From NCBI GenBank assembly GCA_021735655.1, contig JAIPGM010000006.1, forward strand, positions 32,001-96,000: a stretch of DNA of 64,000 nt, given 5' to 3'. How positions within the stretch are numbered: position 1 is the stretch's first letter; the number at the start of each line of letters is the position of its first letter. The DNA is from Candidatus Omnitrophota bacterium. Lineage in GTDB: Bacteria; Omnitrophota; Gorgyraeia; Duberdicusellales; 4484-171. Under the pieces are notes generated by a model. The model did no database searches. It was not told the origin of the DNA and was given only the letters and a program-made list of their open reading frames with translations. Below are positions 2,739 through 32,330 of this stretch, piece after piece. A program made the position numbers and the translations under genes.

Positions 2739-3884
2739 TTATTTGCGTTTTAGTAGACTCAAAACCTCAAGATGCGGGGTATGGGGAAAAAAGTCAAAAG
2801 GCTCAATAAAATCAATGCTATATTGATCGCTGAGGCCTTTTAAATCAATGAAAAGAGCGGTTGGGTTACAAGAAGAATAAATAATTTCCTTAGGCTCTAG
2901 GCGCAAAATGGCCCGAATGATCTTTTTAGAAAGACCAGAACGAGGTGGGTTTACGACTAGAAGGTCTACATCCCTATAAAAAATACCTTGAGTATTCAAA
3001 AACTTACGAACATCGGAAGTAAAAAAAGAAATATTATCAATATGGTTTAATTTAGCATTTTGCCAAGCCAAATCGACTATCTCCTTAACTACCTCAACCC
3101 CCCAAACAAACTTTGCTTGATTGGCAAGATGAATACCGATAGATCCTAAACCGCAAAAAAGATCTAATACTCTCTTGTCTTTAGAAAGACCCCCATAACT
3201 AACAAGCTTCTTATAAAAGTCAGCAATCATTCGAGGGTTTACCTGGAAAAAAGTATCAATCCCAATTTTAAATCTGAAATCTCCCAATCTTTCCTCCAAG
3301 AACTCATCGCCAAACAATAGTTCTTTTTTATCAAAAATAACCGCATCACTTAAAGAATCATTAATAATCCAATAAATAGACTTTATTTTTGACTTTAATT
3401 TTAATTTATTTAGTTCATCAATAAAGCTTTGTGAATTTAATTCTTCGCTACTGGAAGTAACCAAACCGACCATTAGCTGATTGGTAAATTTAGTTTCCCG
3501 AACTATCAAATTTCTTAAAAAACCTTTATGAGAATATTTATCATAAACAGAATGCTTATTATCTTTTAAAAAATATTTAATCGCCTCTAGAATTAGTCTT
3601 AAATCGGATGAGAAAATTAAACACTCCTCCAAATCAACAACTCTTCTCTTTTTATCCTTGCTATACAAGCCGCAAACGACACCTCTCTCGTAACCAAAGC
3701 TAAACTCCATTTTGTTACGATAATACCACTGCTCTGAAGAATTGATTGGCTTTAACTGAGTAGATAGCTCTGAAAGTTCAAGTAAGCCTTTAACTCTAGC
3801 TTCTTTAGTTTCAAGCTGTTGTTGGTAAGGAATATCTTGAAAGCGACAACCGCCACATTCAGAAAAATGTTTACAAATTTTCAT
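2739..3884 (-). CDS. RNA (uracil-5)-methyltransferase, RlmD/TrmA family with N-terminal Fe-S Cys cluster
   Basis: N-terminal CKHFSECGGCRFQ; SAM motif DLFCGLGSIG; C-terminal SSCNP catalytic motif. Confidence 0.7.
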   Translation of the reverse strand: MKICKHFSECGGCRFQDIPYQQQLETKEARVKGLLELSELSTQLKPINSSEQWYYRNKMEFSFGYERGVVCGLYSKDKKRRVVDLEECLIFSSDLRLILEAIKYFLKDNKHSVYDKYSHKGFLRNLIVRETKFTNQLMVGLVTSSSEELNSQSFIDELNKLKLKSKIKSIYWIINDSLSDAVIFDKKELLFGDEFLEERLGDFRFKIGIDTFFQVNPRMIADFYKKLVSYGGLSKDKRVLDLFCGLGSIGIHLANQAKFVWGVEVVKEIVDLAWQNAKLNHIDNISFFTSDVRKFLNTQGIFYRDVDLLVVNPPRSGLSKKIIRAILRLEPKEIIYSSCNPTALFIDLKGLSDQYSIDFIEPFDFFPHTPHLEVLSLLKRK

Positions 3885-4375
3885 TTTATTATTAGACTTT
3901 TGAGTTTTTTTCTTTTAGTCAGTCGAGGATAAGAAACAGGAGCGCCTAAAGCTATAACCGCTTCTAGCTCAAGGTTAGGCCTTAACTTAAGATATTTATG
4001 AACCTTTTTCTTTTGATTAAGAATCTCACCTAGCCAGCAGGCGCCTAACTTTTTAGAATGAATACAAAGTAATATGTTTTGAATACAAGAACCAATGGCC
4101 ATTAGATCTTTCTCATAATTATAAGAGGTCTTCTTATCTAAAAATACTAAAATAAGTTTATCGGCTGATTTGATAATATGACCATAATGAGTAAAAACAG
4201 CCAAAGCATCCTTTTTCTCCTTATCTAGAACCATAAACCGCCAGGGCTGGTTATTGAGTCCCGAAGGCGCCCAGCGACCAGCCTCTAAAATTTTGTTAAC
4301 CGTCTGCCTAGAAACAGCCCTCTTTTTAAACTTTCGCACTGACCTTCTATCTTTTATTAACCTTAACGCTCTCAT
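3881..4375 (-). CDS. nitroreductase family protein
   Basis: RRSVRKF...SGLNNQPWRF motifs of PF00881. Confidence 0.7.
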   Translation of the reverse strand: MRALRLIKDRRSVRKFKKRAVSRQTVNKILEAGRWAPSGLNNQPWRFMVLDKEKKDALAVFTHYGHIIKSADKLILVFLDKKTSYNYEKDLMAIGSCIQNILLCIHSKKLGACWLGEILNQKKKVHKYLKLRPNLELEAVIALGAPVSYPRLTKRKKLKSLIIK

Positions 4376-5699
4376 AGCTAGCTACTCCATTATTCTTATC
4401 GCTAAACCCTCTTTTATCATAAAGATTATCGAGCGGGCTTTCAGGGATATTTACCATATCCCTTAATATATGCGTATAAATCATTGTAGTTTCTACATGC
4501 TTATGCCCTAACAGTTCCTGGACTTCTCGAATATTAACCCCATTCATTAAAAGATGTGTTGCGAAGCTATGCCTGAGAGTATGCACGCTGGCGCGTTTTA
4601 TAATTCCGGCTTTCTTTACCGCAATAGCTACAATCTTTTGAACTGTATTGGGACTTATATGATGTCTTCGGATTTTACCACTCCTAGGATCAATTGAAAG
4701 TCGAGAAGATGGAAAAGCATACTGCCACCCCCACTCCTTAGCAGCTTTAGAATATTTGTGCTCTAAAGCATTCGGTAGATATACCTCTCCATAACCGGCA
4801 GCTTTATCTTCTTCGAAAATATTCTTAACTTGCTCTAAATGTTTTCTGAGAGAACTACCTAACGCCTGTGGCAGCATAGTGCTACGGTCTTTATCCCCTT
4901 TTGCTCCGCGTAAAAATAAAATATTGCTCTCAAAATCAATATCCTGCACTCGCAAGCGCACGAGCTCCATAAGCCGCAACCCTGAACCATAAAGCAATTG
5001 CACAATTAATAAATCTTTATTCCTTAGTTGTTCAAATAACCCTTGTATTTCCTTAACTGACAAAACTGTTGGTAATTTAGGGCCCCGCTTTGCGCGAACG
5101 GTTTCAGCTAAATTATTTACTTCTATTTTTAGAACATCTCGAAATAAAAATAAAAGTGCATTAAAGGCTTGGTTCTGGGTCGAAGATGAAACTCGACCCT
5201 CTATAGCTAGATATGTCAAATAATCTTTAACATCTTCTGGGGTTAGCTTCTGAGGATATATCTGCTTTCGCTTTCCTTTATTTAAATAATCAAAAAATCT
5301 CTTTGCCCATGTAACGTATGTCCTTTCTGTGCTATAAGAAAAATGCTTCACTCGAATGGCATTCGTCATTTTCTTTAACAAATCATCAAAATTAACATCT
5401 TCATCTTTAAATCTAGATACTTCGACAGATTTAATCTTATAAATTTGAGGTGGAGCAAAATTGTCTACATATATACTTATCGCTTCTTTGGCCTGCTGAA
5501 ATTGCCACTCTTCAATTTTTATAATCTTTAGCTTTTCAAAAAACTTTTCTTTCTGTTCCTCAAGTGATGATTTTGGACGAATACAACAGAATTTAAGAAA
5601 TCTATCTACCCAATAGGCATAAAAAGGGGCTGTTTTTTCTGTAGCTAATTTCTTTGAAATTAAAAATCTTTGAAATTGAGATAACACACCTATTTTCAT
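4347..5699 (-). CDS. intI: integron integrase IntI (tyrosine recombinase); ORF has an N-terminal extension, alternative start near 5369
   Basis: C-terminal catalytic region HTLRHSFATHLL...LLGH...TTMIYTH. Also the IntI-specific additional domain ALEHKYSKAAKEWGWQYAFPS...DPRSGKIRRHH (compare IntI1 ALERKYPRAG..W.W..VF....DPRSG.VRRHH). Transcribed divergently from the cassette array. Confidence 0.9.
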   Translation of the reverse strand: MKIGVLSQFQRFLISKKLATEKTAPFYAYWVDRFLKFCCIRPKSSLEEQKEKFFEKLKIIKIEEWQFQQAKEAISIYVDNFAPPQIYKIKSVEVSRFKDEDVNFDDLLKKMTNAIRVKHFSYSTERTYVTWAKRFFDYLNKGKRKQIYPQKLTPEDVKDYLTYLAIEGRVSSSTQNQAFNALLFLFRDVLKIEVNNLAETVRAKRGPKLPTVLSVKEIQGLFEQLRNKDLLIVQLLYGSGLRLMELVRLRVQDIDFESNILFLRGAKGDKDRSTMLPQALGSSLRKHLEQVKNIFEEDKAAGYGEVYLPNALEHKYSKAAKEWGWQYAFPSSRLSIDPRSGKIRRHHISPNTVQKIVAIAVKKAGIIKRASVHTLRHSFATHLLMNGVNIREVQELLGHKHVETTMIYTHILRDMVNIPESPLDNLYDKRGFSDKNNGVASYESVKVNKR

Positions 5700-5878
5700 G
5701 ACTTTTCTTTCTTTGCCATAAATCCAATGATATACATAATATACATTTCCTGATATTATAGATAAATTACATAATTAAAGCAACATTTTTCTTCCAAAAT
5801 CATTAAAAACATGCTAAAATTTTACTATATATATCAATAAAATATAAAAACATATATTATGCATATTAATTGTTAGAT
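5700..5878 (+). promoter_or_regulatory. attI recombination site plus putative cassette promoter Pc (TTGCCA 5713..5718, 17-bp spacer, ATAATA 5736..5741)
   Basis: AT-rich 200-bp intI-proximal spacer ending in GTTAGAT (5872..5878), identical to the core site closing attC5. The promoter hexamers were read by eye in an AT-rich background, so the promoter call is weak. Confidence 0.45.
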
Positions 5879-5905
5879 GTAAAATAAAATGATAAAAGGA
5901 GAAAA

Positions 5906-7189
5906 ATGAAGCAAATTTTGCGCTATTTTTTGGTTTTCTTTTCCCTAATTATATTTTTAAATTTATCTCCTTTTGCTTTTGGACAACAGGACCAATCCTC
6001 CGGTGATTTTATTGATGGGAATTTTGAAGAAATAGGTCGTCTCAAGAAAGATTCTCAGAAACTTGATACCAGTAAAACCGGCGATCTGTTTATGGATACA
6101 TGGATGGGGATATTAACTAGCCCAAAAGAATTTTTTTCTTGGAATACAAAAGGCGATGTCAAACTGGTCTATGATGGGAGTAACACACTGGTTGAATTGA
6201 CACAGAGTAAAGAAGGGCCTGCGTCTATAAGCCAATTCTTTGGTTTTAAAAATAAAGATGCGTCAATTGAGTTTGATGTTAAAATTATAAAGAAAACTAC
6301 CTCAGATGAATTAGAAGTGACAGTAGCAGATGTGGGTGGGCCTGCCTGGGGTAAACCCCCTGCAATAGAGATTCCGCTGGAGACATTTCGGCTCTCAACC
6401 ATTTATCCGACTAAACATATCTCCATTGACCTTTCAAATAGTAAATATTTTTTAGATAAACAAGCTAAAGATGAAGCTAATGATATGGACTTAGTTGATG
6501 CATCTATTTTTGGTACGATAACTTTTCGCTTGAAGGGAAATGCTGAAGAACCAACAACAATACGATTGGATAACCTTAAGGTTACTTATTATAAAAAAGA
6601 AGGCGAAGTGAAACGTTATTATAAAGATAATCAGCCGAAGATAGATAAATTCTATAAAGATGGTAAGCAGGAAGGTCTGGAGAAGCGTTATTATCGCAAT
6701 GGACAGTTACAGTCGGAGCACCCATATAGGAATGGTAAACTAGACGGGATACAAAAGTATTATGCTATAGATGGAAAAGTCTGGGAAGAAACGCCTTACA
6801 GAGACGGCAAGCGAGAGGGAACACAAAGACGTTACAGAAATGGGGTGCTGACGGAAGAAAGATTATATAAAAATGATAAGATGGTAGAAATTAAAATTTA
6901 TTATAAAACTGGTGAAATAAAATCAGAAGCAACGATTAGGAATGATAAGACAGAAGGGTCATCTAAAGAGTATTATAAAAATGGACAAGTAATGGAAGAA
7001 CGTATCTATAGCGATAGCCAGAGAGTAGGCGTAACAAAGCATTACTATGCTAACGGACAGCTAAAAGCAGAGATACCTTACAAGAAGGATAGAAAAGATG
7101 GCATTGCGAGGATTTATAATGAAGAAGGCAACTTAGTAAAAGAAGAAGTTTGGGAAAAAGATAAACTCATAAGTACTAGAGAGAAATAA
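5906..7189 (+). CDS. cassette 1: secreted protein with N-terminal domain and about 9 tandem YwqK/MORN-variant repeats
   Basis: Signal peptide; repeats YYKDNQ.., YYRNGQLQSEHPYRNGKLDG, KYYAIDGKV.EETPYRDGKREG etc.; strong RBS AAAAGGAG. Confidence 0.8.
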   Translation: MKQILRYFLVFFSLIIFLNLSPFAFGQQDQSSGDFIDGNFEEIGRLKKDSQKLDTSKTGDLFMDTWMGILTSPKEFFSWNTKGDVKLVYDGSNTLVELTQSKEGPASISQFFGFKNKDASIEFDVKIIKKTTSDELEVTVADVGGPAWGKPPAIEIPLETFRLSTIYPTKHISIDLSNSKYFLDKQAKDEANDMDLVDASIFGTITFRLKGNAEEPTTIRLDNLKVTYYKKEGEVKRYYKDNQPKIDKFYKDGKQEGLEKRYYRNGQLQSEHPYRNGKLDGIQKYYAIDGKVWEETPYRDGKREGTQRRYRNGVLTEERLYKNDKMVEIKIYYKTGEIKSEATIRNDKTEGSSKEYYKNGQVMEERIYSDSQRVGVTKHYYANGQLKAEIPYKKDRKDGIARIYNEEGNLVKEEVWEKDKLISTREK

Positions 7190-7206
7190 ATATTAAATTA
7201 CCCATC

Positions 7207-7278
7207 TAACAAATCAATCCAGCCGACCCTCCCCGCGCGCTGGCGCGCTTGGTCGGGCGGCTGATTTTTGTGTTATCT
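7207..7278 (+). repeat. attC site 1
   Basis: CTAACAAATCAATCCAGCCGACC ... GGTCGGGCGGCTGATTTTTGTGTTATCT; imperfect palindrome, ends in core GTTATCT. Confidence 0.8.
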
Positions 7279-7284
7279 TAAAAA

Positions 7285-8109
7285 ATGAATCAAATACAAA
7301 TGATAATAAACATAGGAATAGGTGTAATATCTGGCTTAATAACCTTCATTGTATGTGAATACATTCTTAAACCATATCTAAACCAAAAAATAAATCCTAA
7401 AAAAGTTACTAATTTTTTTAGAAGTGGACCATTTTTGTTTGTCTTGGCTGTCCTGATTGCTTTTATCTTAAGTGCCTCCAACCAACAACTGAGAATGACA
7501 TTATTTGGCCATGGCTTAGGCTCTTCTACTGTCGTTAGGGAATTAGAAAATTTATATATGTCAATTCCCGAAATGAAGGATGAAATAATTAAATCATCTG
7601 AGGGAAAGTTAAAGGAAAAAGATTTAATTAACTTGTGTCTGCAAGAAAAATTATATTATTTGAAATTAAAGCAAACCGGGAAATATTCCTACAAACAAAA
7701 TAACGCAAAGGAAGCTATTAATTTTTCAGGCAATCATAAAGTATTGTATCCGAATAGTCAGATTTACTCTGAAACAACATATACAAATGGCGAACGTTTA
7801 GATGCAAATTTTAAAGCTTATTATTACAATGGGGTCATTAGAGCAGAAATTATAACCGACAAATCTCAAATGAACGACACCACGAAAATTGTAAAATATT
7901 ATTACAACAACGGCAAAATATGGTGCGAATATAGATATCACGACAACAAACACATGACTGGTATTATTTATGACAAGGAAGGTAATATACTAGGTAAAGG
8001 AAAAGGTCTTTTTCTAGCAATTCTTATACCTGGTTATTTTGAAAAAATCGAAAGACAAGTTTACGACGTGCGCTACAATCCAAATACATTTTATGATTAT
8101 GGATTATGA
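7285..8109 (+). CDS. cassette 2: membrane-anchored protein with YwqK/MORN-variant-like repeats
   Basis: N-terminal TM segments; C-terminal YYYNGVIRAE, KYYYNNGKIWCEYRYHDNKHMTG repeats. Confidence 0.7.
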   Translation: MNQIQMIINIGIGVISGLITFIVCEYILKPYLNQKINPKKVTNFFRSGPFLFVLAVLIAFILSASNQQLRMTLFGHGLGSSTVVRELENLYMSIPEMKDEIIKSSEGKLKEKDLINLCLQEKLYYLKLKQTGKYSYKQNNAKEAINFSGNHKVLYPNSQIYSETTYTNGERLDANFKAYYYNGVIRAEIITDKSQMNDTTKIVKYYYNNGKIWCEYRYHDNKHMTGIIYDKEGNILGKGKGLFLAILIPGYFEKIERQVYDVRYNPNTFYDYGL

Positions 8110-8125
8110 GAAAATTAATAAAAGA

Positions 8126-8195
8126 TAACAAAGCAATCCAGCGGACCAATTCCGCCGCTTCGCGGCTCCATTGGCCGCTGATTTCTATGTTAGAC
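8126..8195 (+). repeat. attC site 2
   Basis: ATAACAAAGCAATCCAGCGGACC ... GGCCGCTGATTTCTATGTTAGAC. Confidence 0.8.
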
Positions 8196-8222
8196 ATAAA
8201 AAAATAGAAAATAAGGAGAAAA

Positions 8223-9077
8223 ATGAAAATAAAAGCAAAGGAGCCGTGGTTGGCAGTTTTCTTGAATCGCTTGTTGCCCGGATTAGGGTATCTTTACACG
8301 AAGAATTTAGTTAGAGCAATTATTGTATTTTTAGTCACCATATCATTAACGTTTATTGCAGTTTCGACATTGATCGCTTTTGCCAAAAACGATACGACTG
8401 TTACATCCAAAGTATTATGGGGAGTCATTATTTTTGTTGCAGTCAATTTTATATTTAATTTCGCTATCTTGATAGATGGGTATTTGTGTGCAAGGAAACA
8501 TAATCTTTCTAATGACGTAAAGCCTTCGCGCATGGGGCTTCGTATTTTTGCTATCATTGGAACTATAGTTTTATTGTTAACTGGAGGTATCTCTATTTTT
8601 CCGGTTATCTACATAAGAACTCATTTGATACAGTTTTTTAAAATGCCTACCACATCAATGGCTCCAGCGCTAAAACTTAATGATAAAATCATGGTAGATA
8701 AAAAAGCATACAATAGCAATAAGCCACAAAGAATGGAGATAGTTGTATTTCTTCCTCCTCACGATAATAGAAAGTATTACCTGAAGAGAATTATTGGTTT
8801 ACCAGGAGAAGAAGTGGAAATCAAGGACGGCAAGGTTTATATAAACAACGAGGTCATAACTAATCTATTCGTGACAAATAACTATTATTATAATCAGGGT
8901 GATTACGCCAAAAAAGGTAAAAAGATAATCGTGCCCCCAAATAATTATTATGTTTTAGGCGACAATAGCGTTTCAAGTTTGGACAGTAGATTCTTTGGAT
9001 TTGTTCCCGAAAAAAATATAACAGGAAAAGTAGTTAAAATATATTGGCCTCCTGAAAGATCAGGAAGAGTTAAATAA
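8223..9077 (+). CDS. cassette 3: signal peptidase I (S26) with about 130-aa N-terminal polytopic membrane extension
   Basis: Catalytic Ser box PTTSMAPAL, Lys box YYLKRIIGLPGEEVEIKDGKVYINNE, box E VLGDNSVSSLDSRFFGFV; RBS AAGGAG. Confidence 0.8.
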   Translation: MKIKAKEPWLAVFLNRLLPGLGYLYTKNLVRAIIVFLVTISLTFIAVSTLIAFAKNDTTVTSKVLWGVIIFVAVNFIFNFAILIDGYLCARKHNLSNDVKPSRMGLRIFAIIGTIVLLLTGGISIFPVIYIRTHLIQFFKMPTTSMAPALKLNDKIMVDKKAYNSNKPQRMEIVVFLPPHDNRKYYLKRIIGLPGEEVEIKDGKVYINNEVITNLFVTNNYYYNQGDYAKKGKKIIVPPNNYYVLGDNSVSSLDSRFFGFVPEKNITGKVVKIYWPPERSGRVK

Positions 9078-9087
9078 TAAAAATGTC

Positions 9088-9168
9088 TAACAAGTCGATC
9101 CAGCGGACTTAAAAGCGCCGCCAATTAAAGCGCAAAGCGCTTTTAAGCCGCTGATCTTGATGTTATGA
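9088..9168 (+). repeat. attC site 3
   Basis: TCTAACAAGTCGATCCAGCGGAC ... AAGCCGCTGATCTTGATGTTATGA. Confidence 0.8.
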
Positions 9169-9178
9169 GAAAAATAAA

Positions 9179-9676
9179 ATGAAAAAAATAAATAAAATTT
9201 TCTTTGTTTTAATTTGCGTTCTTTGTTCTGCGCAATTAGCACTTTATGCAGAATATAATTCAACCCTCTTAAAACATCATATACAATTTTCTCCACCTAC
9301 CGGTTGGAATCAAATTTCACTTGGCCCTTTTGCCGCAGATATAGAAGGAATTGCATTCCGCAGCCCTGATGAGAAAGCGGTAATTACCGTATCCTTGCCC
9401 AAAAAAACTAATTTTATTTCGTTTCATGGTGCTCTTATATTATTTCGTTTAAGCAAAAGGCCAAAGGAAGAAAAAATAACATTTTGTGATGAGTCATGCT
9501 ATATTTTTGATTTTGAACAAATCAATAAAAATAATATAAAAGTACTGACAAAAACCTATAAATTTTTAAAGAAAAACAAACTATATACAATCAGCTATTA
9601 TTCATCTCCCAATGAATATCGACAGTATTTACCCGAATTTAAGAAGGCGTTAGCAACGTTTAAAATTATTGAATAA
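9179..9676 (+). CDS. cassette 4: secreted hypothetical protein (165 aa)
   Basis: Signal peptide MKKINKIFFVLICVLCSAQLALYA; no recognised domain. Confidence 0.6.
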   Translation: MKKINKIFFVLICVLCSAQLALYAEYNSTLLKHHIQFSPPTGWNQISLGPFAADIEGIAFRSPDEKAVITVSLPKKTNFISFHGALILFRLSKRPKEEKITFCDESCYIFDFEQINKNNIKVLTKTYKFLKKNKLYTISYYSSPNEYRQYLPEFKKALATFKIIE

Positions 9677-9684
9677 ATGTCTCA

Positions 9685-9766
9685 TAACAAAGCAATCGAG
9701 CGGACAATCCTCGCCGCTAAATAGAATTCGGGAAAGCTCGGCTTGCCACTCATTTTTATGTTAGAC
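9685..9766 (+). repeat. attC site 4
   Basis: ATAACAAAGCAATCGAGCGGACAATCC ... GCTTGCCACTCATTTTTATGTTAGAC. Confidence 0.75.
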
Positions 9767-9778
9767 GAAAATAAAAAA

Positions 9779-10318
9779 ATGATTAAAAAGATAATAGTAA
9801 TTATTTGTTTTAGTTGCATAATCTGTTTAAATTTAGCATATTCTAAATATGTTGACCCAGACGCGATTGTTAGGATAACACGCAAAATTACTCAAAGAAT
9901 TTACAAAGATATAATTTCAATTAAAGACGAGTATGAAGAATTGAAGGGTTTTGATGAAAACTTTTATGGTAAAGGGACGAGATTCCAATATCGCATAGTT
10001 AGTCCCACAATCGAATATATTTATTGTCCTGGTACATACAATCAATCTTATGAACGAGTTATGGAATTGTATTGCAACCCTCAACCCCCTGCTATTCATC
10101 TAAGGTTAGTATTCCTTAGCGCTCCTTGTGGCACAAACAAGTGCGACATAGTTAGCATTTGTCCGGATGGAATCGAAGCCCAAATTTATATCGAAGAAAT
10201 TGATCGTTATCTAATATTCAGTCAGCGTAGTGGAAATGCTGAGCTTGATACAAAACTTATGGAAATTTTCCGCAAACACACAAAAAAATACAAAACAAAA
10301 GAAATACCTTGGGAATAG
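9779..10318 (+). CDS. cassette 5: secreted Cys-rich hypothetical protein. Start set at the internal ATG (MIKKIIVI...) because the ORF-track start at 9743 lies inside attC4
   Basis: Signal peptide; ORF confined to the cassette. Confidence 0.55.
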   Translation: MIKKIIVIICFSCIICLNLAYSKYVDPDAIVRITRKITQRIYKDIISIKDEYEELKGFDENFYGKGTRFQYRIVSPTIEYIYCPGTYNQSYERVMELYCNPQPPAIHLRLVFLSAPCGTNKCDIVSICPDGIEAQIYIEEIDRYLIFSQRSGNAELDTKLMEIFRKHTKKYKTKEIPWE

Positions 10319-10325
10319 GCTCATC

Positions 10326-10398
10326 TAACAAGGCAATCCAGCGGACCTTACCTCGGCCCTAACGGGCTTCGGCAAGGCCGCTGATTTTTGTGTTAGAT
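10326..10398 (+). repeat. attC site 5
   Basis: CTAACAAGGCAATCCAGCGGACC ... AAGGCCGCTGATTTTTGTGTTAGAT. Confidence 0.8.
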
Positions 10399-10460
10399 GT
10401 AAAATGAGATCACTAGATGAAAAAAATATTTCTATTAACATGCTATTATAGGAGGGGTAT

Positions 10461-10805
10461 ATGAAAAAAATTTTATTGTGGATGGGTTTTATAATAAACC
10501 TTTTAGCATTCTTAGGTATTGCCTGCTATGGGTCATGGTCTGTTTGGGCTGGAATACTAAGCATTTCTAAATCAGAATATGCAAATATGTATATCGTTTT
10601 CGGAATAGTTCCTGTTTTAATAAGCATTCCTTTTAATATCTTTATGAATCTTTGCTTGAACTCAATTCTGGATAAGAAGAAAAGATTCCCAACAAAATGG
10701 GTTATTTTTTCCCAATCAATCATATTTATTTTGACACCAATCGCTCTACTTACTGGGATTGCAGATTTAATTTCAGATGCATGGAGTTTTTTTACACTGC
10801 GTTAG
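10461..10805 (+). CDS. cassette 6: small integral membrane protein (114 aa)
   Basis: 3-4 predicted TM helices; RBS GGAGG. Confidence 0.55.
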   Translation: MKKILLWMGFIINLLAFLGIACYGSWSVWAGILSISKSEYANMYIVFGIVPVLISIPFNIFMNLCLNSILDKKKRFPTKWVIFSQSIIFILTPIALLTGIADLISDAWSFFTLR

Positions 10806-10850
10806 ATACCGTGCAAGTAATTAAAATTATTTAGGAAATTAAAAAACTTC

Positions 10851-10925
10851 TAACAACTCAATCCAGCTGACCCTTTGACTCGGCCTTTCAGGCCTCGCTC
10901 AGGGCAGCTGATTTTTATGTTATGT
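10851..10925 (+). repeat. attC site 6
   Basis: CTAACAACTCAATCCAGCTGACC ... AGGGCAGCTGATTTTTATGTTATGT. Confidence 0.8.
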
Positions 10926-10967
10926 GAAAATAATAAAAACATTCTCGCACAAAAAAAGGAGGAGAAA

Positions 10968-11321
10968 ATGGACAAGAAAAAAACAGATTGGACAAAACCA
11001 AGCTTGATAATGCTCGGGATTGATGTTCTGGCGCTGTTCATTATGATGATCGTTTTGGGAAATCTTGTTAATAGATTTAATGAATTATACAGTCAATTCA
11101 GCATTGAATTATCACCTATTGCACAATTTAGCTTAACCGGATATAAAATATTTTTTCTACTGCTTTTAATTGGGCTTTTGGGCAAAGAGTTTTTGAAAAA
11201 TAAAAAGGCAACATTCATAATAAATATATCGGCACTAGCTGTTACCCTTTTTATATTTGTGCCTTTTATAATTTTAGGAATATTTTTTCCTTTGTTTAAC
11301 TTAACAAGCATGGGGGGATAA
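10968..11321 (+). CDS. cassette 7: small membrane protein. Start set at MDKKKTDW after RBS AAGGAGGAG because the ORF-track start at 10875 is inside attC6
   Basis: Hydrophobic helices; strong RBS directly upstream of 10968. Confidence 0.55.
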   Translation: MDKKKTDWTKPSLIMLGIDVLALFIMMIVLGNLVNRFNELYSQFSIELSPIAQFSLTGYKIFFLLLLIGLLGKEFLKNKKATFIINISALAVTLFIFVPFIILGIFFPLFNLTSMGG

Positions 11322-11344
11322 ATTTAAAAGTTTTAATAATCACA

Positions 11345-11516
11345 TAACAAGACAATTCAGCCAACCTTCATCCGTTGCCTGTTGGGTTGGCTGGTATGCC
11401 GAACCCTTCATAATAACAAAATGCTTCGCATTTTAAGTATATGGATTCGGCATAGTTCGACTAAGTATTTTTGCTCGCAAAAATGCCAGTCTCATTAGCT
11501 GATTTTTGTGTTATAG
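11345..11516 (+). repeat. attC site 7 (atypically long, about 170 bp)
   Basis: ATAACAAGACAATTCAGCCAACC ... CATTAGCTGATTTTTGTGTTATAG; centre contains extra inverted repeats. Confidence 0.65.
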
Positions 11517-11539
11517 GAAAATAAAACGGAGGAGTTAAG

Positions 11540-11812
11540 ATGGAAAATGTAAAAAAAATATATAAAGAAGGAGTAGTAAAGGGTGTTCGTTATTTTGTTA
11601 TTACATTATGGGTTAATTTTCTATGCATTCCGTTGTACATGATAAAAAATTTCTTTGAGCCAGAGCAGGGATGGAATTTTCAAGAACACACGTTATTAAT
11701 TATTGGTTTCTGTATTCTAGTTGTTGTATATTTACCATTTGCTGTTTATTTGGCATCGAAAAGATCAAACCAACTGAATACTCCTATATTGAAAACAAAT
11801 ATTTCGATATAA
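11540..11812 (+). CDS. cassette 8: small membrane protein (90 aa)
   Basis: RBS GGAGG; two TM helices. Confidence 0.5.
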   Translation: MENVKKIYKEGVVKGVRYFVITLWVNFLCIPLYMIKNFFEPEQGWNFQEHTLLIIGFCILVVVYLPFAVYLASKRSNQLNTPILKTNISI

Positions 11813-11819
11813 TATTTGT

Positions 11820-11892
11820 ATAACAAGGCAATCCACCTGACCATACTCGCCGCTTTTAGCGGCTCGTCTGGCCGGTGATTTTTGTGTTATGT
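11820..11892 (+). repeat. attC site 8
   Basis: TATAACAAGGCAATCCACCTGACC ... GGCCGGTGATTTTTGTGTTATGT. Confidence 0.8.
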
Positions 11893-11903
11893 GAATATAA
11901 AAT

Positions 11904-12476
11904 ATGAATAAAATTGACCTTTTATTTATAGTCTGTCTTCTAGCCTTACGTTTTCTACCTAGAAAATCAGCAAAATATAGATACTATTGGGTGTTTCCTT
12001 TATTAGTCTTTTTTTTAGCTATCGGTATCCGAATTAATTCTAAAATCGAGAGTCGGAAACGTTCAGAAAGAATTCAAGAGCTAGAAAGCAATCTTAACGC
12101 TTTGCGCGATTATAGCTCTATTGCAAAACTTAATATTTTAGGCTTACCTGCTCGTGCAGGTTCAGGCATAAAATTATCTACTCCAATTTCAACTTCGCTA
12201 GAGAATGCAATAATTGAAAAGGATGGCAAATATTTCCCCACGTGCAGCAAGGAAGCGGAAGAAAAATTTAAGCAGACTATAAAATCTTATCCACGATTTC
12301 CATTTTCATACTATGGCTTAGCCGTCTGTCTCAGGAGTAAAGAAGATGAAGCTTGGAAGGATTACGCAAATCAAGCCATAGAAATATTTAAAAAAACTAT
12401 CAGCATTAAAGATCATAATTCTGGGCACGACCAAGCAATGAAAGAATTAATCAGATATTTAGAAGAAATAAATTAA
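11904..12476 (+). CDS. cassette 9: hypothetical protein with N-terminal TM/signal anchor (190 aa)
   Basis: ORF confined to the cassette; no recognised domain. Confidence 0.55.
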   Translation: MNKIDLLFIVCLLALRFLPRKSAKYRYYWVFPLLVFFLAIGIRINSKIESRKRSERIQELESNLNALRDYSSIAKLNILGLPARAGSGIKLSTPISTSLENAIIEKDGKYFPTCSKEAEEKFKQTIKSYPRFPFSYYGLAVCLRSKEDEAWKDYANQAIEIFKKTISIKDHNSGHDQAMKELIRYLEEIN

Positions 12477-12496
12477 AACTAGGTAATTAAAACACA

Positions 12497-12575
12497 TAAC
12501 AAAGCAATCCACCTGACCCTCCTCGCGGCTTCCTGAGACCGCGGGCTCGTCGGGCAGGTGATTTTTGTGTTAGGA
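12497..12575 (+). repeat. attC site 9 (last detectable)
   Basis: ATAACAAAGCAATCCACCTGACC ... GGGCAGGTGATTTTTGTGTTAGGA. Confidence 0.8.
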
Positions 12576-12646
12576 GGTAAAAATTTACGCAAAATTTTCT
12601 TTCTTTGCCAAGATTAGAATGCTATAATTGTTTTTAGGAGATAACT

Positions 12647-13378
12647 ATGTTCTGGATTTGGATAATGATTATTATGATAGTAATGGCCGCTGGGGTTGTA
12701 ACCTTAGCTCTCCTGCCGACCTCTAAAGAATTGGCTTATTTAGAAAAATTACGAAAAATAGCTGATGATTTGCTTTATAGACTAAAAAACACCTTAAGAG
12801 AAGCCTGGAAAGAAAAGAAAAAACTTCCACTACCACTTGTAATTTTGGGGGCTGTCTGGATATTGAATGGCTTATATATAAGCATAAGTACTTTAATGAC
12901 CCCTTCTCAAATCACAAAACTAGAGACTCTAGCTGGTATATTCAGGATCTTAAGCATCGGTTGGATTATTATTGGGGTAACTTTATTTAACGGCTATATT
13001 TTAAGTAGAAAATTTGCCTTTATCGCCGCAGGAATAGTAATTAGCCTTGGTATTGCTGTTATTGCAGTACCACCGCTTACCCAAGAAGAATATCTTCTGC
13101 AACAATATGAAATATATCTACAAAATCAACAGTATCAACAAAATACTCTAGGAATTAATGAATATGTAACCTCGCGGCTGGTAGATCCTGGCGAAGGTAG
13201 GCCTACGAAAGCTGAGATAACCAAAGAACAAGCTATAGCTATAATCAATATGCTTATTGCCCTGATTACGATACTTTATCTAATTACTCCGAAAGCTAAA
13301 AAATATTTTGGTATCGAAAAGGAGCAATCTTTTTCATTTAAAGAGGGAATTGGTAGTTCATTTCGTCGCTACCGCTAA
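12647..13378 (+). CDS. integral membrane protein with Gln-rich segment; the distal ORF of the array with no downstream attC
   Basis: Multiple TM helices; stop codon overlaps the era stop (convergent). Confidence 0.5.
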   Translation: MFWIWIMIIMIVMAAGVVTLALLPTSKELAYLEKLRKIADDLLYRLKNTLREAWKEKKKLPLPLVILGAVWILNGLYISISTLMTPSQITKLETLAGIFRILSIGWIIIGVTLFNGYILSRKFAFIAAGIVISLGIAVIAVPPLTQEEYLLQQYEIYLQNQQYQQNTLGINEYVTSRLVDPGEGRPTKAEITKEQAIAIINMLIALITILYLITPKAKKYFGIEKEQSFSFKEGIGSSFRRYR

Positions 13379-14304
13379 TCCAACCAGTAGCCTAATTCTT
13401 TTAATATTCGAGGACGTTCTTGCCAATCTTTTAAAACTGTAACCCAAATATCTAAAAACACTTTCTTGCCATATATCTTTCCGATCTCAAGACGCGACTC
13501 AATTCCAACATTTTTAAGTATTTGGCCATTTTTACCGACAACTATTTTTTTCTGAGAATCCCTTTCTACATAAATATTCGCCTTTACGTATACGACCTTT
13601 TTTTTATCCTTTATTTCAGAAATCTCAACTGCCAAGGAATGCGGTAACTCCTCATCCAACTGTAAAAATAACTTTTCGCGTATTATGTCAGCAACCCTAA
13701 ATTTATCAGGAAAATCAGTTAAAGTCTTAACATCGTAATAAGCTTGAGCTACCGGCAAGATTTCCACCAAAACATCTCTCAACTTGTCGATATTTTTCCC
13801 AGTCTTAGCTGAAAGCGGAATATAATATTCTAAAAAACTATCCTTCCCAGCCTTCTTAGACTTCTCTTCCCACAAAGCCATATAATCATTAAGGAACTTT
13901 ACTCCTTTATCCACTTTGTTAAGCACAATTATGGTTTTTACTTTTTGAGTTGTGATAATTTTCATTAGGGTTTCCTCTTCCTGCCCGGGTTTGCGGGAAA
14001 GATCAACCACGTAAATTATTAAATCACACCCTTCAATAGATCTTTTAGCTATCGTATTAAGATGAGAGCTTAGTTTATCTTTAAACGAATGGATTCCCGG
14101 AGTATCGACAAAAATTGCCTGGGCATCTTTTAAATTCATAATTCCCCTTATTTGATGCCGAGTTGTCTGAGGAATGCTAGACATAATACTTATCTTATCC
14201 CCAACCAAAGCATTAAGGAGCGTTGACTTTCCTACATTCGGACGACCCAAAATTGCTATAAAACCTGATTTAAAATTTTTACTAATCATAGTTAATCCTT
14301 CCAA
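13375..14304 (-). CDS. era: GTPase Era
   Basis: G1 GRPNVGKST, G3 DTPG, NKVD; C-terminal KH domain. Confidence 0.9.
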   Translation of the reverse strand: MEGLTMISKNFKSGFIAILGRPNVGKSTLLNALVGDKISIMSSIPQTTRHQIRGIMNLKDAQAIFVDTPGIHSFKDKLSSHLNTIAKRSIEGCDLIIYVVDLSRKPGQEEETLMKIITTQKVKTIIVLNKVDKGVKFLNDYMALWEEKSKKAGKDSFLEYYIPLSAKTGKNIDKLRDVLVEILPVAQAYYDVKTLTDFPDKFRVADIIREKLFLQLDEELPHSLAVEISEIKDKKKVVYVKANIYVERDSQKKIVVGKNGQILKNVGIESRLEIGKIYGKKVFLDIWVTVLKDWQERPRILKELGYWLD

Positions 14305-30568: not shown

Positions 30569-32330
30569 TTTTTACCTCTCTACTATTTACTTTTTCAAAT
30601 TCTGTAATTAATATTTTTACTTTCTTTGTATCGCCCTTTGCTTCGGCATCACGTATTTTTTCACGAAGCTCACTCTTAAACTGAATTATTCCTTTTTTCT
30701 TTAACTTAAGCAAACTCTCCTTAAAGGTATTTTTATCCATCGGTATATCGTCATCAATAAGAATTTTAGAAATAAAGCTACTAATTTCCTTGTCGTTAAT
30801 CGTACCCAAAAACTTTGGCCCGGATACCCCAGCTTCAATCGAATTGTTTAAAAATAAAGAAATTGCTTTACGGGAAATCGGTGAACTGAAATATTCCTGT
30901 TTTAAGTTCTTTTTAACCAAAGGAAAAGTTTTTGGATTAGTAAGAAGAAACTTAAAAATTACCTTCTCGGTAACTGGCAAGAGTTCGTTTTTATTTAGTC
31001 CGGCTGACTGGTTTCCCCCAGGGGCAGAAAATTTGTTTCGCCGAGTATTATTGACTGGGCTCTTCTTTTGAAACTCAGCAATCATGATCTCTTCTTTAAC
31101 TGAAAGTGCGCCGGCTAACTTTCTTATGTATTCATACTTTTTTATTTGCGAAGGCAGTTTATCTATCGTCTCAAGCATCTCTTTAGCAATCTTAGTTTTA
31201 CCGTCTATGCTATCCTTGTCATAAATATTGCTAAGGACATCTACCTTGTAATCAAAAAAATCACGAGCCTGCTTTAAAAAGGTCAAAAAATCAGCCCGAT
31301 CTTTATTTCTAAAAAAAGAGTCCGGATCGCTGCCTGACGGCAATTGCATAATCTCAACCTCTAGTCCTTGCTCAAGAAGCAAGTCCAAAGAACGCAGAGT
31401 AGCATTCTGCCCGGCCTTGTCAGAATCATAAACCATGACCACTCGCTGGGCATAACGCTTAATCAAACGGATCTGCTCTTCGGTAAGAGCGGTGCCTAAT
31501 GAGGCAACCACATTGCTTATTCCACGCATAAAGGGCGTAATCATATCTAAATACCCTTCAACCACAATAGCGGTCTGTTGATTTGAAATCTCATCTTTTG
31601 CCAAATATAAACCATAAAGATGGTTTCTTTTGCTATAAAGAACATTTTCTAAAGAATTGATATATTTCGGAGCCTGCGTATCTTTTGTATGTATCCGAGC
31701 ACCAAAGCCAACCACCCGCGAACGAATATCCAAAATAGGAAAGGTGATTCGATTACGAAATACATCACAAAAACCGCCACCCCTTGATGTAATTAACGAA
31801 CATTTCTCTAAAATTTCAAGGGTAAAACTTTTCGTCCGCATATAGCTCATCAACCCATTATTGCCCGGAGCATAACCCAGCTGAAACTTCTTAATCGTCT
31901 CTGGGCCAACACCTCGCTCAGCTAAGTAATCCCGCACTCCTTGTAATTTTTTATCATTTTTCAAATTATTATGAAAAAATAAAGTAGCTACGCTCATTGC
32001 TTCATAAAGCGCAGTCTTTGTCTTAGCATTTTTATCTTGCTGATAAGGAATATCCAAGCCTAGACGCTTAGCTAACAACTCTACCGCTTCAGGAAAGCTT
32101 ATTTTCTCGATCAAAGTAATAAATTGGAACACACCTCCGCCTTCGCCGCAGCCAAAACAATGGAAAATCTGCTTCTGAGGACTAACAATGAAAGATGGTG
32201 TTTTCTCCCCATGAAAAGGACAAAGCCCTTTAAAGTTTCGGCCAGCTTTCTTGAGCGGTAGGTAACTGGCGATAACCTCTGCTATGTCTGTCCGAGATTG
32301 GACCTCATCTATAAATTGTTGTGGGATCAT
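30561..32330 (-). CDS. dnaG: DNA primase
   Basis: Zn-finger [11 protein letters not shown]...CFGCG, TOPRIM. Confidence 0.9.

Follow-up and report, generated by a model that had tools for sequence, protein, structure and literature searches.

A probably functional chromosomal integron and a cassette shared between species in an uncultivated Omnitrophota bacterium

A 64-kb stretch of DNA from an uncultivated bacterium of the phylum Omnitrophota (hereafter the window: 64,000 nucleotides, positions 32,001 to 96,000 of contig JAIPGM010000006.1, assembly GCA_021735655.1) contains what is in all probability a complete and functional integron. We put the probability of this reading at about 0.85. The element occupies region 4347-12575 and comprises an integrase gene (intI), an attI site and nine cassettes with one open reading frame (ORF) each, all of which lie inside the window, and it is situated at a fixed chromosomal site between rlmD and a nitroreductase gene on one side and era, near which the array ends, on the other. 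Integrons are a known kind of element, but this one is found in an under-studied phylum and provides a clear natural case of cassette exchange between species. Four sets of observations carry the reading, namely the anatomy of the attC sites and of the integrase, covariation within the attC arms, synteny of the flanking genes and the sharing of a cassette with another species.

The + strand carries nine direct repeats within 7204-12575 (coordinates include 3 nt of flank on each side); eight of these are 73-85 nt long and one is 175 nt. A first-pass annotation of the window had identified nine attC repeats and derived consensus sequences for their arms. The 5' arm consensus matches eight sites with up to three mismatches and the 3' arm consensus matches seven, compared with chance expectations of 0.00 and 0.01, respectively, in 64 kb, and neither matches the window outside 7207-12573. 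Trained on the eight short sites, a covariance model (R1) scores these at 66-85 bits and the long site at 27 bits, and detects nothing beyond the nine sites in the window. The nine annotated repeats are thus confirmed. An Rfam search of the whole window returned only two tRNAs and no attC family at threshold, which neither supports nor contradicts this assignment.

The repeats fold in the manner of attC sites. In the hairpin formed by the bottom (-) strand, an R stem containing the AAC triplet is followed by 4-5 unpaired bases per side, an L stem and a variable distal stem-loop. A G and a T bulge out of the L stem, both on the arm opposite AAC; counted from the R'' end they occupy the equivalents of G16 and T23 and are separated by a 6-bp stem. 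The same geometry has been reported for attCaadA7 and is required by IntI1 (Nivina et al. 2016). Both the G and T bulges and the unpaired spacer are seen in most sites, attC4 and attC7 being atypical, and none of the nine departs from the AAC and GTT triplets. Pairing in the L-box helix of the eight short sites amounts to 96.6%, and double-sided changes are seen at four of the 11 pairs, as where CAGCGG/CCGCTG becomes CACCTG/CAGGTG. Two of 500 shuffles reached the observed covariation score, and pairing falls to 30-48% once the 3' partners are slid by 1-3 columns. These compensatory changes argue for selection on attC structure. Folding energy also favours the bottom strand in seven of the nine sites, with small margins that are too weak to stand alone.

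A further signature lies at the ends of the cassettes. In each R'' box the four outermost bases are complementary to the start of the box's own cassette (that is, to R' of the preceding site or, for cassette 1, to attI) at 33 of 36 positions; against the next R' in the array the figure is only 16 of 36. Insertion of circular cassettes at G|TT is expected to leave this footprint. In the mechanism that we propose, the tyrosine recombinase IntI would bind the folded bottom strand of attC through the R-box stem with its AAC, the fully unpaired spacer of 4-5 nt and the L-box stem, in a fold that places the bulged G and T 6 bp apart and leaves the distal stem-loop variable, and would exchange one strand between G and TT. 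Circular cassettes would enter at attI (G5872|T5873) and leave by excision between attCs, and nine single-ORF cassettes, all reading away from intI, could have accumulated in this way.

It is scarcely conceivable that the repeats are something other than attC sites, such as repetitive extragenic palindromes or miniature inverted-repeat transposable elements, intrinsic terminators or a CRISPR-like array. Their regular spacing (0.4-1.4 kb) and the terminator-like appearance of several sites might suggest this, but an integron integrase gene adjoins the array, each interval holds one ORF in a single orientation, and one of these units has moved as a cassette with breakpoints at G|TT. Neither the invariant AAC and GTT triplets, the canonical bulge geometry and the complementarity of R'' to its own cassette start, nor the lack of any Rfam family match and of further repeats in the 64 kb, would fit such an origin. 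The terminator-like appearance deserves a comment of its own. When read in the sense direction, the attCs present a GC-rich hairpin followed by a conserved T run (GATTTTTGTG), for example at 7246-7270, 8162-8188, 10365-10390 and 11860-11885 on the + strand. A scan for terminator-like structures gave 10 hits in 5600-13400 compared with 4.9 +/- 2.2 expected, and six of the ten are in attCs (five on the + strand). Such sites might limit read-through between cassettes. Each attC could then double as a transcription terminator that insulates the cassettes, although, taken jointly with the local making of cassettes considered below, we regard this as an improbable proposition.

The intI product matches the integron integrase profile TIGR02249 across the whole profile and scores 273 bits against the class 1 equivalog NF011946, under the cutoff of 435. 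The closest solved structure is VchIntIA in complex with the folded bottom strand of the Vibrio cholerae repeat (VCR) (2A3V, E 2.4e-71). In the alignment with this structure the IntI-specific insert is present, and W219, P232, H240 and H241, which we take to be contacts to the extrahelical bases, are conserved; the position of W157 is occupied by R, like R168 of IntI1. The catalytic R, K, HxxR, H and Y are all present. The gene appears intact and its product is presumably active. Compared with classical IntI proteins it has some 110 additional residues, the canonical IntI being represented by residues 107-426. Thousands of environmental homologs of approximately 430 aa share the conserved N-terminal extension, in which many residues are invariant. 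It matches Phage_int_SAM_4 weakly (E 3.3e-5; 24.6 bits, slightly short of the cutoff of 27) and resembles a second SAM-like module placed in tandem. Long-form homologs are found in metagenome-assembled genomes (MAGs) labelled Omnitrophota, Planctomycetia, Thermodesulfobacteriota/Syntrophia, Nitrospirota and Elusimicrobia, and we found no description of them in the literature searched. The public annotation of intI (P0001, 340 aa) begins at an internal Met. We place the true start at 5699, because homologs cover 94-97% of the 450-aa ORF and residues 1-106 are conserved.

An attI site can be recognised between intI and the first repeat, where the motif TTGTTAGAT follows an AT-rich spacer. Within it, GTTAGAT (5872-5878) is exactly complementary to ATCTAAC, the R'' box of attC1, and the 100% identity with foreign copies of cassette 1 begins at 5871/5872, marking the attI crossover. 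Taken together, an IntI with its extra domain, attC anatomy, an attI joined at G|TT and discrete one-ORF cassettes make up what is expected of a complete integron.

The arrangement of intI and its array is not the same in all long-form relatives. In two independent integrons with a long-form IntI the array lies upstream of intI on the same strand and the cassettes read toward the integrase gene; such loci are L001 (1-3356, intI 3380-4639), L135 (5717-11144, intI 4395-5735), L139 and L023 (4450-9570, intI 10001-11456). In L135, 24 nt separate the end of an attC from the ribosome-binding site and start codon of intI. This layout is not the canonical divergent one and looks like a whole-array inversion. 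It is also unlike the layout of Treponema-type integrons. A different case is L011, a 35.6-kb contig in a MAG of a Methanosarcinales archaeon, which carries at least three attCs of this general type (7436-8971) and a long-form intI (10001-11272), and represents either an archaeal integron or a binning error.

Since attI bounds the array on the left at 5872, era follows on the right at 13375 and no further attC is detected, the array is complete with both ends in the window. It had been suggested that the array might continue and that further arrays might be found elsewhere in the genome; instead it is bounded on both sides, and no other array is present in the window or at the one other locus of the genome that could be checked. 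The ORF that separates attC9 from era encodes a 243-aa membrane protein with no family match, is not followed by TCCTAAC or another attC, and is missing between era and the array in a related locus (L101). It is either resident DNA or a decayed last cassette.

Synteny supports a fixed, sedentary location. The Omnitrophota MAG contig JBDRAN010000059.1 (L002) encodes an IntI with 58% identity followed by rlmD (53%), an AMP-binding protein (60%), PNP (66%) and DUF2621 (65%), in the same gene order and orientation as the left flank in the window. In L101, era (62%) is followed by three attCs in the orientation seen in the window. Both edges of the integron are thus conserved at about 60% protein identity, the left in L002 and the right in L101. 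No cassette is common to the window and either of these loci. We interpret this as vertical inheritance of the platform combined with horizontal exchange of cassettes, in line with the sedentary chromosomal location that had been proposed for the repeats at first reading.

Cassette 1 provides a direct view of such exchange. From the attI crossover to the GTTA of attC1 (5871-7275), the window is 100% identical over 1405 nt to five other records (L167; L169, GCA_043812175.1; L170, GCA_018829265.1; L171, which is the contig of L119; and L172), all of which belong to a sister species, here termed species B. Neighbouring genes of species B and of the window genome share only about 72% DNA identity and 70-81% protein identity. 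The identity reaches as far as the crossover point on either side and no further, so that it was the cassette that moved and not the platform. As read from these alignments, the pattern indicates a recent transfer of the cassette between species. In species B the identical cassette is the third in a four-attC array (L167 8905-12094; also L169, L170 and L141 12815-12909) that lies between amidohydrolase and IF-2B-like genes, with no integrase nearby. The window genome has an ortholog of this amidohydrolase on the same contig as the window (P0122, 81% identical), where the gene order is amidohydrolase, aminotransferase and IF-2B-like gene; no attC is present at this locus, the aminotransferase gene taking the place of the species B array. 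Since new cassettes enter at attI, the attI-proximal slot fits a recent acquisition by the window genome, and we infer the direction of transfer from this position.

Two other features of the species B loci were noted. Two neighbouring attCs in L167 (9879-9973 and 11299-11373) differ only by a 19-nt palindromic insertion, CTGCCTGCCGGCAGGCAGG, and one substitution, and this near-identical pair could show an attC copied onto a new gene. On the 2.3-kb metagenome contig L119/L171 (2226-2346, read on the - strand), the attC that precedes the identical MORN cassette is the one found in L167, but the sequence upstream of CAATCCAGCC differs and the R'' box is replaced (…TTCATGTTAT|CAATCC…). This contig represents either a third context with its junction inside an attC arm or an assembly chimera.

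The presence of an identical cassette in another species might be taken as the mark of a mobile integron, or of a mobile element recently acquired by the chromosome. The short array, an orientation typical of mobile integrons, a cassette GC content of 0.32 that is under that of the flanks (0.37-0.38), and IntI relatives at 55-60% identity that are spread over several phyla without tracking host phylogeny would all be in keeping with this. We nevertheless consider it very unlikely. No transposase, tni, plasmid or phage genes flank the integron, the neighbours being rlmD, the nitroreductase gene and era; synteny of both flanks extends to relatives with about 60% protein identity; and the identity with species B ends exactly at the cassette boundaries. 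Neither does the integrase belong with those of mobile classes 1-5, given its score below the class 1 cutoff and the 49% identity of the best plasmid-borne IntI (43-46% for IntI3), and the array DNA shows no match to plasmids. Class 1 attCs such as attCaadA7 do resemble those described here in being short, with bulges at the G16 and T23 equivalents, a 6-bp stem, an unpaired spacer and AAC/GTT triplets. In contrast to class 1 mobile integrons, however, there is no Tn402 or 3'-conserved-segment context and there are no resistance genes, and the attCs of the window are far more alike than is reported for mobile integrons (Cury et al. 2016, PMC4889954). The earlier view that these are attCs of a chromosomal integron and not of a mobile resistance integron is consequently borne out by the adjacent intI, the housekeeping flanks and the distance from plasmid-borne sequences.

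We expressed the uniformity of the arms as mean pairwise identity over 42 arm columns. The eight short sites give 0.84 and the full set of nine gives 0.82 (range 0.67-0.95), whereas whole sites are 0.71 and 0.64 identical, respectively, and the centres are 0.54 identical compared with 0.47 for shuffled centres. Part of the arm variation is compensatory, and the unpaired spacer is also conserved as a TTTTTRT run. As a baseline we pooled attCs from arrays near related integrases with those of the arm-pattern contigs described below. Random sets of nine drawn from this pool have an identity of 0.686 +/- 0.029 and none of 5000 draws reaches the 0.823 of the window; the pool was gathered with a model trained on the window sites and is biased toward similarity, which makes this test conservative. 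Compared within arrays, the arms are 0.823 identical in the window, 0.849 in L167 and 0.905 in L101, and 0.63-0.75 in arrays with other integrases. There is thus a lineage signal: the arm type of the window recurs, with equal uniformity, in L167 and L101, two other organisms that each have one flank in common with it. The first-pass annotation had described a highly homogeneous family with nearly identical arms, and had named as its own test whether the arms are closer to each other than to random attCs. Since random sets of related attCs are significantly less uniform, the description survives that test, but arms at 0.82-0.84 and whole sites at 0.64-0.71 are similar and not nearly identical, and to call them highly homogeneous is an overstatement.

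It is possible, in principle, that the likeness of the arms reflects no more than a generic attC consensus imposed by IntI binding, with no homogenisation by lineage or array and no common origin. Single distant sites can be as similar to the window sites as these are among themselves, and the compensatory changes show that structure is under selection. We consider this explanation unlikely on its own, since random sets of nine fail to reach the uniformity of the window, since the unpaired spacer is conserved despite being free of pairing constraint, and since L167 and L101 have the same arm type at 0.85-0.90 when arrays with other IntIs remain at 0.63-0.75. In the account that we favour, the arms are alike in part because they are bound by IntI and must pair, so that their structure is selected; beyond selection, this attC type would circulate among integrons with a long-form IntI in similar environments, and would be especially uniform in this Omnitrophota lineage. 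The uniform arms might also reflect cassettes made or re-tailed locally in the lineage by the long-form IntI, a process of which the near-identical attC pair of species B could be a snapshot; we offer this suggestion, together with the terminator function mentioned above, as an improbable one.

The arm type, TAACAA-NN-CAATCCAGCGGAC ... GCCGCTGATTTTTGTGTTA, is found well beyond this genome. Scanning a genome collection for IntI gave 80 loci, the best with 59% identity, and R1 finds near-identical arms in several of them, including those labelled L005 and L001 (both Planctomycetia), L023 and L003 (both Omnitrophota), L012 (Syntrophaceae) and L019 (Nitrospirota). Single foreign sites reach 0.86-0.88 against the window set, as close as the window sites are among themselves. 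The exact pattern CAATCCASCNGAC-N(28-58)-TGATTTTTRTGTTA occurs in 86 metagenome contigs from many samples, with a chance estimate far below 1. On this sequence evidence the arm type is not host-specific, and the initial description of host-specific repeats cannot be upheld when the same arms occur in these contigs and in MAGs labelled Planctomycetia, Syntrophaceae and Nitrospirota. Clustering of attCs by environment more than by host phylogeny has been reported by Ghaly, Tetu & Gillings (2021, PMC8352920), although Omnitrophota is absent from the 11 taxa that were modelled in that study. Like the taxon- or environment-associated attC types described there, the sites reported here are recognisable by a covariance model, and they are common to integrons of different taxa. 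We found no description of this arm type in the literature searched.

Arms of this uniformity invite comparison with the super-integron of Vibrio cholerae. Both are chromosomal, with intI divergent from the array and related attCs, and the IntI aligns with VchIntIA. The differences are more pronounced: there are nine cassettes here compared with well over a hundred, no toxin-antitoxin cassettes were detected, and the orientation to replication is opposite. VCRs also differ in length, at about 120 nt or more compared with 73-85 nt, and only the arms are conserved in the window sites. According to the criteria of Rowe-Magnus and Mazel, super-integrons are reportedly characterised by more than about 20 cassettes, attCs with more than about 80% identity and a non-mobile chromosomal location; the present locus shares the location, but has nine cassettes and whole-site identities of 0.64-0.71. 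The rules of Cury et al. (2016, PMC4889954) for sedentary integrons include more than 19 attC sites and presence in 100% of the genomes of a species. Nine sites in an array that is bounded on both sides fall below this number, and presence within the species is seen from one genome in two assemblies (the window and L168, which are 100% identical). The suggestion of a VCR-like uniformity accordingly goes too far. That the window holds only a fragment of a large, host-specific array of the Vibrio type is very improbable: the arms are indeed more uniform than in related arrays and the chromosomal flanks are conserved, but the array is complete with nine sites, the centres scarcely differ from shuffled sequence, arms of this type are found in 86 metagenome contigs and in MAGs labelled as other phyla, and there is no attC cluster at the P0122 locus.

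The orientation of the array relative to replication points to a different comparison. Strand asymmetry in the window is very pronounced. Long ORFs occupy 45.3 kb of the - strand and 9.5 kb of the + strand (83% of long-ORF bases on -); the integron accounts for 5.6 kb of the latter, and no other block of + strand genes is as large. Over 1-64000 the cumulative GC skew declines monotonically, and by third-codon GC skew the - strand is G-rich for genes of both orientations. Because the third-codon skew follows the strand and not gene orientation, the - strand has the sequence of a leading strand. If so, the cassettes would be transcribed head-on to replication and the attC bottom strands would lie on the lagging-strand template, an orientation that we infer from composition. 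The opposite orientation was found in 25 of 30 sedentary integrons, and the orientation seen in the window only in Xanthomonas, with arrays of up to 22 cassettes (Loot 2017, PMC5371416); this latter orientation was shown there to raise cassette excision. By analogy, a small, dynamic array would fit this picture.

The locus therefore resembles the small chromosomal integrons of the Xanthomonas type and not the Vibrio super-integron. Like these it occupies one fixed chromosomal site across related species with differing cassettes, contains no more than 22 of them and has its bottom strands on the presumed lagging-strand template. The two differ in host and in location, the present element lying in Omnitrophota at the rlmD-era locus, and in the long-form IntI with its extra N-terminal module. 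Xanthomonas integrons adjoin ilvD, and many of their intI genes are inactivated, whereas the intI described here is apparently intact.

Several points weigh against parts of this reading. Two sites, attC4 and attC7, are partly degenerate and may be poor substrates. In attC4 the first bulged base of the bottom strand is C in place of G; attC7 can be read as a 67-nt attC with a 108-nt hairpin-rich structured insertion (11394-11501), which sits in the 3' arm after GGTTGGCTG and has GCTG as its own end, and of which there is no other copy in the window or in the more than 170 loci compared. The putative cassette promoter (Pc) at 5713-5740 is only a candidate, being a consensus hit in AT-rich DNA where promoter-like hits are common (44 found compared with 33 expected), and the promoter rules of Omnitrophota may differ. 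Sedentary status is deduced from one flank in each of two distant relatives, and species B, the nearest relative (L141, L167), is without rlmD or intI beside its AMP-binding gene. No IntI with more than 61% identity is present in a database of 5.8 billion proteins. Retention of the platform is thus not universal. With respect to the shared arm type, the bias of the attC pool toward similarity is not conservative, and the labels of short MAG contigs with the same arms may be binning errors, which would weaken the case against host specificity.

The features of the locus are listed in Table 1. Each cassette contains exactly one ORF on the + strand, with 12-68 nt between the crossover and its start and 7-45 nt between its end and R''. 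All nine ORFs, and the one that follows the array, begin with a signal-peptide-like or membrane segment, and every cassette would therefore encode a secreted or membrane protein. Family matches are limited to three ORFs, which encode a MORN-repeat protein, a weaker MORN-repeat protein and an extra signal peptidase I; the last of these scores 157.9 bits against TIGR02227 (cutoff 47) and also matches Pfam Peptidase_S26. No resistance, toxin-antitoxin or defence families were detected among the cassette proteins. The two MORN-repeat proteins weakly resemble a Leptospira adhesin family. Exact copies of the proteins of cassettes 3, 4 and 9 are found only in this same genome, and a tblastn search with all nine cassette proteins against the 80 IntI-related loci gave no hit. 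The arm-pattern contigs contain relatives of cassettes 1 and 4 only, the homolog of cassette 4 (46%) being encoded on metagenome contig L126, which was recovered through the attC arm pattern. A relative of attC9 (93.6% identical) is present on metagenome contig L092. A 32-nt direct repeat between the intI leader and the DNA just after attC9 (5703-5734 and 12595-12626, 81% identity) was discarded as a candidate feature, as about five such matches are estimated to arise by chance in 64 kb of AT-rich DNA.

Table 1. Features of the integron and its chromosomal boundaries (window coordinates; attC coordinates include 3 nt of flank on each side).
Feature	Coordinates	Strand	Description
rlmD	2739-3884	-	left chromosomal boundary; TIGR00479, 284.6 bits
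nitroreductase gene	3881-4375	-	left chromosomal boundary (block 2739..4375)
intI	4347..5699	-	integron integrase, 450 aa; TIGR02249, 395.7 bits (cutoff 265), full profile
IntI N-terminal extension	5382-5699	-	residues 1-106; putative extra SAM-like module, followed by canonical IntI
intI-attI intergenic region	5700..5871		AT-rich; contains candidate cassette promoter
candidate promoter	5713-5740	+	TTGCCA-16 nt-CATAAT; sigma-70-like consensus, 10/12
attI core	5866..5878	+	TTAATTGTTAGAT; crossover G5872|T5873
cassette 1	5873..7272	+	attI-proximal; ORF 5906-7189, 427 aa; MORN-repeat protein with signal peptide; Pfam MORN_2, E 1.7e-28
attC1	7204..7278	+	75 nt; R1 77.0 bits; bottom-strand hairpin with G and T bulges
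cassette 2	7273..8189	+	ORF 7285 or 7300 to 8109; membrane protein, weak MORN repeats
attC2	8123..8195	+	73 nt; R1 75.5 bits; fold
cassette 3	8190..9162	+	ORF 8223-9077, 284 aa; signal peptidase I, N-terminal membrane domain
attC3	9085..9168	+	84 nt; R1 66.5 bits
cassette 4	9163..9760	+	ORF 9179-9676, 165 aa; signal peptide; no family match
attC4	9682..9766	+	85 nt; R1 66.4 bits; weak fold; most degenerate short site
cassette 5	9761..10392	+	ORF 9779-10318 (alternative start 9758); signal peptide; no family match
attC5	10323..10398	+	76 nt; R1 80.8 bits; 0 mismatches to both arm consensuses, closest of all
cassette 6	10393..10919	+	ORF 10461-10805, 114 aa; three membrane segments
attC6	10848..10925	+	78 nt; R1 72.2 bits
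cassette 7	10920..11510	+	ORF 10968-11321, 117 aa; membrane protein
attC7	11342..11516	+	175 nt; R1 only 27.1 bits; atypical bulged bases
cassette 8	11511..11886	+	ORF 11540-11812, 90 aa; membrane protein
attC8	11818..11892	+	75 nt; R1 84.8 bits
cassette 9	11887..12569	+	ORF 11904-12476, 190 aa
attC9	12494..12575	+	82 nt; R1 78.8 bits; last in array
post-array ORF	12647..13378	+	243-aa membrane protein, several membrane segments; 4-nt overlap with end of era
era	13375..14304	-	GTPase gene; right chromosomal boundary; NF000908, 337 bits

Integrons are known mostly from Proteobacteria, and we found no description of them in Omnitrophota in the literature searched. The locus described here adds a complete, apparently intact example from a phylum of uncultivated bacteria, and leaves the understanding of how integrons work unchanged. 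Its arm pattern is a usable probe, as the recovery of 86 contigs demonstrates. If the local making or re-tailing of cassettes considered above were true, the lineage would be a natural system in which to address the unsolved question of how integron cassettes originate. The flow of cassettes between uncultivated organisms is directly observable in public metagenomes, and this locus separates an inherited platform, retained at one site between species with approximately 60% protein identity, from a moving cassette of 1.4 kb.

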